DNA of 53,275 nucleotides from a virus. The stretch lies in UHGV virus genome UHGV-0205694; one strand, 5' to 3'. A program made the position numbers and the translations under genes. Positions within the stretch are counted from its first letter, which is position 1. Every line of letters starts with the position of its first letter. Shown here one piece after another: positions 11,803 through 18,223 of the stretch. The notes below the pieces were generated by a model. That model made no database searches, was not told the DNA's origin, and saw only the letters and a program-made list of their open reading frames with translations.

Positions 11803-12837
11803 ATGACCAGTAATTTAGCATCTGTAACTTATGGTTCTGTTTGTTCTGGAATTGAAGCTGCATCAGTCGCTTGGGAGTCACTCAACTGGAAAGCTGAGTG
11901 GTTCGCAGAGATCGAAAAATTCCCCAGCGCTGTATTGCAGCATCACTGGCCCAACATTCCCAACCTTGGCGATATGACCCGGATTGCAGGGCGTATCCGT
12001 GAAGGGACAATAACAGCACCGGCAGTTCTTGTGGGAGGAACACCTTGCCAGGCATTCAGTGTTGCAGGAAAACGAAAAGGGCTAGATGACGAGCGCGGGA
12101 AGCTTACCTTATCTTTCGTTGAATTAGCAGATCAGATCGACAATACCCGCATTGCATCAGGAAAAGAGCCAGCAATCATTCTTTGGGAAAATGTAACAGG
12201 GGTACTAAATAGCCATGACAATGCATTCGGTTGCTTTCTCGGTGCGCTGGCCGGGGAAGGTTGCGCACTACAGCCAGCAGGGAAAAAATGGGCAAACGCT
12301 GGTGTTGTCTCTGGACCATCGCGAACTGTTGCCTGGCGAGTGCTCAACGCCGAATTTTTCGGAGTGCCCCAGTCACGTAAACGTGTCTTCGTTATGGCAA
12401 GTGCTCGACGTGAATTTGACCCCGGAATGGTTTTATTTGAATTCCCGACTTTGCCTCCGCGCACTGCGAAATATTACGGAGCACAGAAAAAAACCGGCAC
12501 CAGAGCTTATACAGGCATTGAGAGAGAATTCCATCGATATTGCCTGAGGGCAATCCCTGAGACGGCGGGAACTTTACTCGCGAGCTATAACGGAACGTCA
12601 AACCAGGATATGCGAATGCGTGGTGGCTTGATTGTAGAAGTTACCCCCTCCCTTAGAGTTCGCCGGCTCACCCCATCGGAATGTGAACGACTACAGGGCT
12701 TTCCTGTAGGACACACGAATATTCCTTGGCGCTCAAACTCCCCTTTGCCTCGTTACAAAGCTCTCGGCAACTCAATGCCAGTGCCAGTAATGAAATGGTT
12801 AGGAGAGAGAATACAAAATGCTATTTCTTCAACTTAA
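11803..12837 (+). CDS. DNA (cytosine-5) methyltransferase, orphan
   Basis: Motifs: I (VCSGIEAA), IV (TPCQAFSVAG), VI (ILWENV), VIII (QSRKRVF), X (LGNSMPVPV). Confidence 0.85.
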   Translation: MTSNLASVTYGSVCSGIEAASVAWESLNWKAEWFAEIEKFPSAVLQHHWPNIPNLGDMTRIAGRIREGTITAPAVLVGGTPCQAFSVAGKRKGLDDERGKLTLSFVELADQIDNTRIASGKEPAIILWENVTGVLNSHDNAFGCFLGALAGEGCALQPAGKKWANAGVVSGPSRTVAWRVLNAEFFGVPQSRKRVFVMASARREFDPGMVLFEFPTLPPRTAKYYGAQKKTGTRAYTGIEREFHRYCLRAIPETAGTLLASYNGTSNQDMRMRGGLIVEVTPSLRVRRLTPSECERLQGFPVGHTNIPWRSNSPLPRYKALGNSMPVPVMKWLGERIQNAISST

Positions 12838-15551: not shown

Positions 15552-15887
15552 TCAACTACAGACCAGATGCATGCATGGGCATGTCTCCACTCTTGCCAGC
15601 CCAGTAACCGATTTCGCTTCTCTCTCAGCCAATTCTAAGGTAGCTGCGCAAAGCTTCTGGTATCTACCGGTTGTGAAGCCTTTCTTTTCTGTCAGTCCAA
15701 GTAGCGGGTTGATGCTTTTGCAATTAGCCCGATGAATCCTGGTAAAGCGTTCATCACTCTTGCTTGCCTTACCGCTGGCGGTTTTTAAGGTGTTGACGAC
15801 ATATCCATCAGGATTATCGCTAAGCCAATGACGATACGCAGATTCACTATCCGGTTGAAGTTCGCTTCTGAATACCTTTACGCCCAT
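15552..15887 (-). CDS. hypothetical protein transcribed against the late operon (111 aa)
   Basis: Clean minus-strand ORF in a gap between plus-strand genes. Confidence 0.35.
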   Translation of the reverse strand: MGVKVFRSELQPDSESAYRHWLSDNPDGYVVNTLKTASGKASKSDERFTRIHRANCKSINPLLGLTEKKGFTTGRYQKLCAATLELAEREAKSVTGLARVETCPCMHLVCS

Positions 15888-15933: not shown

Positions 15934-16938
15934 ATGGCAAAACCGGACTGGGGCGAGCTTCAGCAACGGTTCCTGTCCGAACATGCCGCAACCGGCGTAT
16001 CACCGAAGGACTGGTGTGAAGCGCAGGGACTGAATTACGCTACTGCCCGCCGATACATCAAGAAACCCACTGCGCAAACTGCGCAAAAACCTGCGCAGAA
16101 GAAATTGCGCACTGCGCAAAAGGAAAAGTGCGCAGAAGAGCTGGTGGACGATGACGGCCTTACTGCCCAGCAGCGTTTATTTGTCGCAGAATACCTGAAG
16201 GACAACAACGCCACGCAGGCCGCTATCCGTGCCGGGTACAGCAAGAAGACAGCGAATGAGCAGGGAGCAAGGCTGTTAGCAAAAGTTAGTATTGCGCAGG
16301 CCATTGCGCAGCAGCAGAAAGCATCAATTGTGCGCACGCTTGGCAGCGCTGATGAAGTGCTTGAGCAGATGTGGCGCCTGGCCACCTTCGACGCCAACCA
16401 GCTATCACAGTATCGCCGCGGGAGTTGCCGTTATTGTTGGGGCTTCGGTCACCAGTATCAATGGCGTGATGCCGTGGAGTACGAAGAGAAGCGGCTCGAA
16501 GCGCTTGAGCGTAAACGTCGCGAGCCTTTGGATGATGGCGGCTATGGCTACAACCATAAGCGCGAGCCTAACCCTCATTGCCCCCGGTGTAATGGTGATG
16601 GTATCGGGCAACCCTTCTTTGCCGATACCACGAAGTTGCCATCTGATGCCGCCCGGGCTTATTCCGGAGTGAAGCTTGGTAAGAATGGCGTTGAGATAAC
16701 CGCAATCAGCCGTGAGCGCATGTACGAGGCGGTGATGAAACGTCTCGGCCTGGCTGACAGTGAGTTTGCCCAGCGCCTGCAGCAGATAGAAATTGAGCGA
16801 CGGCAGCTGGAGATCGACAAACTTCGCAAAGAACTGGCCACTGACCCGGAGGATGACGAACCAACGCCAGTTGCAATCAATATCAACGTAGTCGATGCGC
16901 GAGTGAGGGAAGAGGATGGCGATAGCTCCGACGCTTAA
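15934..16938 (+). CDS. terminase small subunit (P27/Terminase_2 family) with extended C-terminal region
   Basis: LTAQQRLFVAEYLKDNNATQAAIRAGYSKKTANEQGARLL hallmark motif. Confidence 0.75.
   Translation: MAKPDWGELQQRFLSEHAATGVSPKDWCEAQGLNYATARRYIKKPTAQTAQKPAQKKLRTAQKEKCAEELVDDDGLTAQQRLFVAEYLKDNNATQAAIRAGYSKKTANEQGARLLAKVSIAQAIAQQQKASIVRTLGSADEVLEQMWRLATFDANQLSQYRRGSCRYCWGFGHQYQWRDAVEYEEKRLEALERKRREPLDDGGYGYNHKREPNPHCPRCNGDGIGQPFFADTTKLPSDAARAYSGVKLGKNGVEITAISRERMYEAVMKRLGLADSEFAQRLQQIEIERRQLEIDKLRKELATDPEDDEPTPVAININVVDARVREEDGDSSDA
16071..16134 (+). repeat. array of six TGCGCA hexamers within 64 bp at the 5' end of terS (candidate pac/TerS recognition site)
   Basis: TGCGCA at 16071, 16080, 16092, 16106, 16113 and 16129. 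Confidence 0.6.
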
Positions 16939-18223
16939 CGTTCCCCAGGCTCGTTTTCTGGCTATGCAGCAAAAATTCAAAGCCTATGTGGCTGGCTTTG
17001 GATCCGGTAAGACGTGGGTTGGCTGCGGTGGAATATGCAAAGGGTTCTGGGAGTTCCCCAAAATAAACCAGGGCTACTTTGCCCCAACCTATCCTCAGAT
17101 CCGCGATATTTTCTATCCCACGGTGGAAGAGGTTGCTCACGACTGGGGACTGAAAGTCAAAATCGTTGAGAGCAACAAAGAGGTCCATTTCTACAGTGGG
17201 CGCCAGTACCGCGGTACGACAATTTGTCGTTCGATGGAAAAGCCGGACACGATAGTCGGCTTTAAAATCGGCAATGCGCTGGTGGATGAGCTCGACGTTC
17301 TGAAAGCGGATAAGGCGCGTCAGGCGTGGCGAAAAATCATCGCGCGTATGCGTTATAAGGTTGATGGTCTCCGTAACGGCATTGACGTCACCACAACGCC
17401 TGAAGGATTTAAGTTCGTCTATAACCAGTTTGTTAAGGCTGTGAGGGAAAAACCTGAACTGAGGCCGATGTATGGTCTGGTACAGGCTTCGACATTCGAC
17501 AACGAAAAGAACCTGCCGGATGACTATATTCCTTCGCTCCTGGCGAGTTACCCGCCGGAATTGATCAAGGCATATCTGAACGGCCAGTTTACTAACCTGA
17601 CAAGCGGCACCATTTATCACCAGTTCGACAGGGTGCTGAACAACTCCAGCGAAGAAGAACAGCCGGGTGAAGCGCTCTATATCGGGATGGACTTCAACGT
17701 CGGGAAGATGGCCGGGATCGTACATGTATTGCGTCTCGGCTTACCGCACGCGGTAACAGAGATTATCAACGCTTACGATACGCCCGACATGATACGCATC
17801 ATCAAGGAGCGTTTCTGGCTGTATGCCGACGGTGACTACCGCAAGGTCCGCGAGATTTACATTTATCCGGATGCCTCTGGTGATTCCAGGAAGTCAAACA
17901 ACGCCAGCAAAACAGATATTGAGCAACTCCGACAGGCCGGATTTAACGTCATCGTTGATGATGCTAACCCGCCAGTAAAGGACCGCATCAACTCCATGAA
18001 CGCCATGTTCTGCAATGGTAATGGCGATCGCCGATACAAGGTGAATGTGGCCCGTTGTCCGGTCTATGCCGACTGCCTGGAACAACAGGTGTGGGATAAA
18101 AACGGCGAGCCGGATAAAAAGAGCGATAACGATCACCCCAACGATGGCGCCGGTTACTTCATTGTGAAGCAATTCCCAATCGTTCGACCTGCATTCTCTA
18201 TTTCACTGGACACGACATTCTGA
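16916..18223 (+). CDS. terminase large subunit
   Basis: Walker A-like GFGSGKT; ~435 aa; follows terS; C-terminal nuclease-like acidic motifs. Confidence 0.8.
   Translation: MAIAPTLNVPQARFLAMQQKFKAYVAGFGSGKTWVGCGGICKGFWEFPKINQGYFAPTYPQIRDIFYPTVEEVAHDWGLKVKIVESNKEVHFYSGRQYRGTTICRSMEKPDTIVGFKIGNALVDELDVLKADKARQAWRKIIARMRYKVDGLRNGIDVTTTPEGFKFVYNQFVKAVREKPELRPMYGLVQASTFDNEKNLPDDYIPSLLASYPPELIKAYLNGQFTNLTSGTIYHQFDRVLNNSSEEEQPGEALYIGMDFNVGKMAGIVHVLRLGLPHAVTEIINAYDTPDMIRIIKERFWLYADGDYRKVREIYIYPDASGDSRKSNNASKTDIEQLRQAGFNVIVDDANPPVKDRINSMNAMFCNGNGDRRYKVNVARCPVYADCLEQQVWDKNGEPDKKSDNDHPNDGAGYFIVKQFPIVRPAFSISLDTTF

Follow-up and report, generated by a model that had tools for sequence, protein, structure and literature searches.

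In the virus genome UHGV-0205694, the small-terminase gene terS carries in its 5' part an array of short TGCGCA palindromes. Judged from sequence comparisons, we consider with a probability of about 70% that this array is the sequence-specific recognition part of the pac site of a prophage. The stretch that we analysed, hereafter called the window, is 53,275 nt long and is a lambdoid prophage of the Klebsiella type, with O/P replication genes, NinG, Q and lysis genes. The original prediction, made from the letters of this DNA, had proposed that the hexamers form a pac/TerS recognition array. This proposal is supported, at the level of sequence, by purifying selection on the hexamers, by a helix-turn-helix (HTH) domain of the PacA type in TerS, by a layout similar to that of the pac site of phage P1 and by a covariation between the hexamer and the recognition helix of the HTH. 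The start of packaging is predicted to lie near the array.

The TGCGCA positions initially reported (16071, 16080, 16092, 16106, 16113 and 16129) were all found to be exact when we read the sequence, and they lie, as stated, at the 5' end of terS (Table 1). However, the count of six was incomplete since a second cluster, with three more copies of the hexamer (16293, 16305 and 16331), had been overlooked. TGCGCA occurs 34 times in the window for 25.6 copies expected; there is no general enrichment and the clustering alone is abnormal. The densest 64 nt contain six copies, and in 300 first-order Markov simulations we never observed more than three. A Poisson estimate for at least six copies in any 64-nt stretch of the window is about 5e-8, in agreement with the earlier statement that the array is far above chance. 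Taken together, the two clusters bring nine hexamers into 266 nt, for a simulated maximum of four, and all nine are located within the first 40% of terS (15934-16938). Hexamers of cluster 1 are flanked by A-rich DNA and start 9, 12, 14, 7 and 16 nt from one another. From the last hexamer of cluster 1 to the first of cluster 2 there are 164 nt, of which 158 nt are free. We propose that cluster 1 is a binding array for the HTH of TerS, the "HEX-left" of pac, and that cluster 2, which is located at the end of the G1P-like HTH and in DNA encoding a folded domain, is the "HEX-right".

No GATC is present in 16066-16340. A possible RNA structure formed by pairing of the palindromes was also considered, and rejected since the fold of 16055-16345 gave a non-significant z-score of -1.36. 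On the minus strand of 16070-16119, the palindromes and A-runs are scored as three hairpins with T-tails that resemble terminators, and the array region contains seven terminator-like sites for 1.6 expected. These hairpins are probably a by-product of the hexamer motif, although they could stop antisense transcription into an upstream open reading frame (ORF) of the minus strand (15552-15887).

Selection acts on the DNA motif rather than on the encoded peptide. Cluster 1 encodes PTAQTAQKPAQKKLRTAQKEKCAEE, and its hexamers are read in three codon phases (xxT-GCG-CAx four times, xTG-CGC-Axx once and TGC-GCA once). The resulting peptide contexts are TAQ (three times), PAQ, LRT and CA in cluster 1 and IAQ, IAQ and VRT in cluster 2. 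Since three codon phases are in use, the DNA repeat shapes the peptide and not the reverse, which bears out the earlier claim that repetition of the DNA forces a repetitive peptide. When cluster 1 was recoded synonymously, with the peptide and the local codon usage kept fixed, 0.54 hexamers were expected instead of six, and none of 20,000 recodings contained more than four. Under such recoding, the joint probability is 2e-7 for six hexamers and 3.6e-10 for nine.

The variation among close relatives leads in the same direction. In cluster 1 of 64 close relatives, we counted 13 minor alleles at the 36 hexamer positions versus 97 at the 40 inter-hexamer positions, that is to say, variation is about sevenfold lower inside the hexamers than between them. 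Hexamer 4, for example, is nearly unchanged, and yet the base directly on its 5' side is different in 24 of these 64 sequences. Nearly all of 80 unique terS genes of close relatives retain eight or nine of the nine hexamers, and in one variant a hexamer has been lost by a 9-nt deletion. In these 80 relatives, the third-codon variability is 0.004-0.09 at terS nt 1-210 and 0.016 at nt 361-390; it is 0.10-0.30 in most of terS 3' of the array. The DNA encoding the N-terminal HTH (15934-16053, terS nt 1-120) has a third-codon variability of 0.004-0.05, below that of the array, suggesting an extra constraint at the DNA level or a recently spread recombination block. The TGCGCA hexamers are thus under purifying selection at the DNA level.

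Among close relatives, no other part of terS is as mosaic as the spacer. In eight Klebsiella phages which are 84-92% identical (including loci L001-L007), terS nt 216-358 (16149-16291) exist as three very different alleles, and the flanks of this segment (nt 1-215 and nt 359-420), which include both hexamer clusters, are invariant. This pattern suggests that the DNA for the SF6-G1P-like HTH can be exchanged as a DNA-binding unit, with the hexamer clusters as its borders.

The candidate reader of the hexamers is located at the N-terminus of TerS. The protein consists of three parts, namely an N-terminal HTH of the PacA type, a disordered linker and a body of the SPP1/SF6 G1P type with a CxxC...CxxC insertion; that TerS carries two HTH domains had escaped the original prediction. 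The N-terminal HTH was modelled by AlphaFold with pLDDT values of 73-90 and with helices at aa 6-20, 24-31 and 35-38+, and it has a weak match to HTH_Tnp_1 (E 0.0025). When we compared it with aa 2-41 of P1 PacA, hhalign gave a probability of 91% (E 1e-6, 40 columns), and BLASTP gave E-values of 1e-11 with D6 PacA and 6e-4 with P1 PacA. On the basis of these alignments, it is a remote homologue of the N-terminus of P1 PacA. We propose that its recognition helix is ..NYATARRYIKK and that this domain would be the one that reads the TGCGCA hexamers. Beyond aa 45, the similarity of TerS to PacA is marginal (E 0.035), and no significant similarity was detected between TerL and P1 PacB (E 0.085). 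A profile search of PDB sequences with the N-terminal HTH gave no match. The DNA of cluster 1 encodes the linker, which directly follows the HTH and occupies about 30 aa ahead of aa 76; residues 46-69 are predicted to be disordered (pLDDT <50).

To determine how far the association of the HTH with an array extends, one genome per species was scanned, yielding 67 loci with the HTH from Enterobacterales, Vibrio, Aeromonas, Gallibacterium and Psychromonas. Across the surveyed loci, an array of one hexamer starts at terS nt 131-147, straight after the HTH, and the same layout is present in phages vB_EcoS-613R10, PhiR12_3, douglas 12A4, RothD and vB_YenM_30.14. In the 54 loci of the TGCGCA class, the density of the hexamer is 34.6 per kb at nt 126-260 and 7.5 per kb at nt 261-460, for only 0.25-0.39 per kb in the flanks, so that the array is approximately 100-fold denser than its surroundings. 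By tblastn, the 44-aa HTH behaves as a separate module, located N-terminally in TerS proteins whose bodies differ considerably from one another. An exhaustive search detected the module in 229 protein clusters of 46-382 aa, and in nearly all of their best-listed representatives it occupies residues 1-46. The TerS family itself gave 2,822 matches. In all, the HTH and its array are attached to at least five unrelated types of TerS body, in addition to PacA. Because no more than about 15 nt separate the reader domain from its sites, we propose that the HTH and the adjacent array are inherited together as a specificity cassette.

Many public terS copies are frameshifted or truncated exactly inside the A-rich array, which leaves ORFs of 44-80 aa (proteins P0001-P0101); examples are loci L096, L128, L139 and L143, at terS nt about 130-230. 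Such copies could reflect homopolymer sequencing errors, prophage decay or something regulated.

The sequence of the hexamer covaries with that of the recognition helix. A helix of the form ..A-R-R-Y/H.. is accompanied, with few exceptions among 55 loci, by 3-9 copies of TGCGCA. With a helix of the form ..A-K-R-Y/H.., the array consists of TGCGAA/TTCGCA in 4-7 copies with 0-1 TGCGCA, in 13 loci out of 13. P1, D6 and the Stx phages have GATC hexamers, as do D6-like and P1-like contigs. TGCGAA is read as Ala-Asn in enteric loci and as Cys-Glu in Gallibacterium; the hexamers carry their peptide along as a passenger. In a tree of HTH residues 1-35 the Arg and Lys classes are interleaved, and two loci (L093 and L103) are identical over these residues; the switch of hexamer is therefore local to the helix and the array. 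In an IMG/VR contig (L199), terS nt 111-290 join an HTH of the Lys class to a TerS similar to Sf6 gp1. TGCGAA is present there in three codon phases within the conserved Sf6-type HTH (SLRKVCER versus SLLKVCKR in phage Gally), suggesting that the DNA motif has altered the sequence of a folded domain.

Several observations weigh against a pac function for the array or against its reading by the helix. As a mere 15 nt or so separate the recognition helix from the array, the covariation of Arg/Lys with the hexamer could represent one or a few linked events spread by recombination. In addition, the Ala-Lys codons themselves form TGCGAA in 5 of 12 loci of the Lys class, and Lys39 could in part follow the DNA motif as a passenger. 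One locus of the TGCGCA class (L198) has nearly the helix of P1 (NTARRYLRA), a difficulty for any account of the residues that set the specificity. We had supposed that Asn36 dictates the AT at the centre of the hexamer (TGATCA in P1, D6 and Stx phages); this was refuted since L198 combines Asn36 with six TGCGCA. In the Stx phage phi296, cluster 1 is made of GATC hexamers and cluster 2 of TGCGCA. The zone of cluster 2 contains at least two hexamers in only 26 of the 54 species-level loci, i.e. about half, and one locus (L181) has an ..ARRY.. helix without any array. The DNA encoding the HTH is less variable than the array, so that conservation of the latter may be due in part to a recent sweep. 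In the spacer (16135-16292), no IHF consensus WATCAANNNNTTR was found with at most one mismatch, this consensus being weak; HU or an intrinsic bending by A-tracts could substitute for IHF. Finally, a fold search with the HTH model gave only non-significant matches, to IstA, Tc3 and Aca1 (E ≥0.57); the alignment for this small model consisted of some of the sequences from a protein search with the 46-aa HTH, which returned mainly short truncated or frameshifted ORFs.

The same data can be read in other ways. The hexamers might be bound by the HTH of TerS for a role other than packaging, such as autoregulation of terS/terL or occlusion of antisense transcription. Indeed, the linkage and covariation of HTH and array point to a cognate pair and not to its function, the array is inside a transcribed and translated gene, and its palindromes and A-runs form the three terminator-like sites of the minus strand mentioned above. 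We nevertheless find this explanation unlikely: the homologous module of P1 serves pac cleavage, the HTH is found almost solely at the N-terminus of small terminases, no promoter-like site is present in or beside the array and, as the TGCGAA class is not palindromic, the hairpins are not a general property. It is quite improbable that the hexamers are sites for another protein, either a host factor or a restriction-related function such as the C5 cytosine methylase of the prophage. TGCGCA is a type II restriction site that includes GCGC, the best solved relative of the methylase is M.HhaI, which is specific for GCGC, and the P1 pac site is controlled by methylation of its hexamers. However, the match to M.HhaI is confined to the catalytic motifs and the target-recognition region does not align, so that our attempt to deduce a GCGC specificity led to no conclusion. 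Besides, the hexamer of the sister class, TGCGAA, has no GCGC, and across unrelated phage backgrounds the position of the array is fixed relative to the HTH and not to other genes. Since TGCGCA contains GCGC, a control of the pac hexamers by methylation, as in P1, is conceivable.

The two invariant clusters could also be mainly recombination joints, that is, blocks of homology through which lambdoid phages exchange the DNA-binding segment that the clusters enclose. The three alleles of terS nt 216-358 found between invariant flanks in eight close relatives are in favour of this idea, which we consider very unlikely as a principal explanation because it accounts neither for the repetition of the hexamer, nor for its independence from the codon phase, nor for the switch to TGCGAA with the helix, and because hexamers are also present in loci without such mosaicism. 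Recombination joints could rather be a secondary consequence of the conservation of pac DNA. Least credible of all is that the array is the by-product of a low-complexity basic linker, produced by slippage of a 9-12-nt unit encoding a TAQK-like repeat, with selection on the peptide or no selection. The linker is predicted to be disordered, a 9-nt indel changes the copy number among relatives and two of the four commonest spacings (12, 14, 7 and 9 nt) correspond to whole codons. Yet the hexamers use three codon phases where synonymous recoding would yield 0.5 of them, and they are retained while the peptide changes fully (ANS versus NCE; LRT, CA and VRT contexts). Moreover, their bases are about sevenfold less variable than the neighbouring bases of the linker, and cluster 2 is in a folded domain. 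An origin of the array driven by the peptide or by slippage is essentially excluded.

If the array is the recognition part of pac, the following sequence of events can be proposed. PacA-type HTHs, carried on flexible linkers around a TerS oligomer, would bind the A-tract-flanked hexamers at 16071-16134 and probably also the three hexamers at 16293-16336. This binding would bend or wrap roughly 270 bp of DNA, and the N-terminal HTH would supply the sequence specificity that the SF6-type HTH lacks. TerL would then be placed for the first cut, for which the 158-nt spacer is the most likely site by analogy with P1, and headful packaging would run from there towards terL and the portal gene. The spacer (16135-16292) is accordingly, on the model of P1, the predicted zone of the first terminase cut. 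As for the broader proposal that a portable cassette, composed of a reader and its address, moves between unrelated small-terminase genes and sets their packaging specificity, we regard its chances as evenly balanced. There would be at least three specificities (TGATCA, TGCGCA and TGCGAA), and TGCGCA and TGCGAA would be separated by the Arg/Lys change in the recognition helix.

Table 1. Positions in the window of the hexamer clusters, of the terminase genes and domains, and of the methylase gene.
Feature	Coordinates	Strand	Basis or location
C5 cytosine DNA methylase gene	11803-12837	+	Pfam DNA_methylase, E 1.9e-40
terS, small terminase, 334 aa	15934-16938	+	ORF; matches to Pfam Terminase_2, PHROG 51 and PDB
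N-terminal three-helix HTH module, TerS aa 1-44	15934-16065	+	AlphaFold, HTH_Tnp_1 and PacA comparisons
Hexamer cluster 1, six TGCGCA palindromes	16071-16134	.	terS nt 138-201
Spacer between the clusters	16135-16292	.	encodes the beginning of the SF6-G1P-like DNA-binding domain
Second HTH, DNA-binding domain of the SF6/SPP1 G1P type, TerS aa 76-125	16159-16308	+	PDB sequence match, Foldseek
Hexamer cluster 2, three TGCGCA (16293, 16305, 16331)	16293-16336	.	terS nt 360-403
terL, large terminase, nuclease/ATPase partner	16916-18223	+	Pfam Terminase_6N, E 5e-35; Terminase_6C, E 8e-8

The assignment of terS rests on a match of aa 76-275 to Pfam Terminase_2 (E 2.5e-29, 103.1 bits for a curated cut-off of 26.1), on a match to PHROG 51, terminase small subunit (E 5.8e-75), and on similarity to the SF6 small terminase of PDB entries 3zqp and 3zqq (E 6e-8). 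The second HTH matches PDB entries 2cmp and 4zc3 by sequence (E 1e-5) and by Foldseek (TM score 0.90-0.92, root-mean-square deviation 1.0-1.5), and was modelled with pLDDT values of 81-89. This G1P-like domain is not the first of TerS, as it starts at aa 76 after the other HTH and the linker, and Pseudomonas and Burkholderia relatives of the TerS body match aa 76-278 only, without the first HTH and the linker. When the ring-forming oligomerisation core was checked, the alignment with 3zqp was found to extend to aa 152, in a model whose pLDDT is below 50 beyond aa 135. A CxxC...CxxC pair (CRYC and CPRC) is inserted within the Terminase_2 match at aa 165-219 (16426-16590), where the model is of low confidence; it is probably a zinc ribbon and is common to the TerS proteins of 613R10-type and Yersinia phages. 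Downstream, the start of terL overlaps the end of terS by 23 nt, and a portal gene of the DUF4055 family follows terL. Relatives of TerL belong to Kagunavirus, Jersey-like and Dhillonvirus siphophages, groups which we take to be headful packagers, and the type of TerL suggests headful packaging here as well.

To our knowledge, the pac site has been identified in no more than a few phages. In ES18, although this phage is well studied, it is still unknown (PMC11260489). Our literature search, whose coverage was incomplete, returned no description of a cassette of HTH and array with other hexamers on unrelated terS genes, nor, among work on terminases, PacA homologues, 933W/Stx phages and Klebsiella pac sites, any account of the TGCGCA array reported here. 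If our interpretation is correct, the start of packaging could be read from the sequence in very common prophages of Klebsiella, Enterobacter, Citrobacter, Salmonella and E. coli, and, if the proposal of a portable cassette holds as well, a sequence-readable pac code would be available for thousands of enterobacterial prophages, including Stx phages. Our interpretation would also allow one to predict the starting points of lateral and generalised transduction of host genes nearby, and would provide a fragment of about 270 bp for building packageable Klebsiella phagemids. With a portable cassette, phages and satellites could swap or escape a packaging specificity in a single recombination event. 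The two classes of helix furthermore constitute a natural experiment in protein-DNA recognition, one class of helix residue being set against one base of the hexamer.

Among known systems, phage lambda offers a parallel: the N-terminal winged HTH of gpNu1 reads several repeated R-sites of cosB beside its own gene. Work of the Feiss laboratory on lambda, 21 and N15 reportedly established that their specificity classes differ by matched changes in the recognition helix and in the sites. The R elements of lambda are, however, 16 bp long, lie outside coding DNA, upstream of Nu1, and function in cos packaging, whereas the hexamers described here are within coding sequence. In E. coli LF82 phage Gally, a pac peak maps inside terS (PMC9928086). 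We considered this phage as an experimental anchor; it was uninformative since its TerS is a 140-aa protein of the Sf6 gp1 type without the PacA-type module.

The G1P proteins of SPP1 and SF6 are homologous to aa 75-152 of the TerS body, including the HTH DNA-binding domain. In SPP1, pac (pacL-pacC-pacR) overlaps the 5' end of terS, with sets of direct repeats flanking the cut, and the DNA-binding domain of SF6 G1P binds pac DNA without sequence preference (PMC4737164). These systems are without the extra N-terminal HTH, and the G1P domain does not recognise their box repeats in a specific manner. The TerS described here has gained, upstream, a separate domain that appears to be a specific reader using a simple hexamer code; the non-specificity of the SF6-type HTH leaves a role for such a reader.

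A TerS of the Stx/933W type (Traversvirus) has the same N-terminal HTH (53% identity over 43 aa), with the helix ..NTARTRIKM, directly followed by four YGATCA at 12-nt spacing, on a body unrelated to that of the TerS described here. In the Stx phage vB_EcoP_phi296 (L090), terS nt 135-180 contain four P1-like YGATCA hexamers, which are Dam sites, and the downstream pair (nt 235-264) is TGCGCA and identical to that of PhiR12_3 (L091), whose first cluster is TGCGCA. This mixed arrangement may be the footprint of a cassette replacement.

The closest comparison is with P1, whose pac design has been known since the 1980s according to the literature cited in PMC10028697. Synonymous destruction of the P1 hexamers decreases packaging of the P1 genome about ninefold (PMC10028697). 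The annotated P1 record has TGATCA at pacA nt 194, 201, 213 and 228 and TGATCG/A at nt 324, 336 and 347, and places pac cleavage at nt 276-285, between the hexamer clusters and beside an IHF site. This arrangement of cluster, spacer and cluster inside pacA is the layout found here, so that the comparison with P1 pac drawn in the original prediction holds. In both cases a short palindromic TG..CA hexamer is present in two clusters with irregular spacings of 7-16 nt, in the 5' part of the small-terminase gene and directly after the homologous N-terminal HTH (helix ..ATARRYIKK here and ..NTARRYLRA in PacA), and the peptide across the hexamers is a low-complexity passenger. P1 pac has 4+3 (plus 1) TGATCR in 160-190 nt, and the prophage 6+3 TGCGCA in 266 nt. 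The differences concern the hexamer, TGCGCA instead of TGATCA/G, hence without GATC and without Dam control; the gap between the clusters, 164 nt from start to start (158 nt free) instead of 96 nt; the rest of TerS, which is similar to SF6/SPP1 G1P and not to PacA; and the element itself, a lambdoid siphovirus prophage where P1 is a plasmid myovirus. If our interpretation holds, the unusual pac design of P1 would be a widespread modular solution rather than an oddity of that phage.

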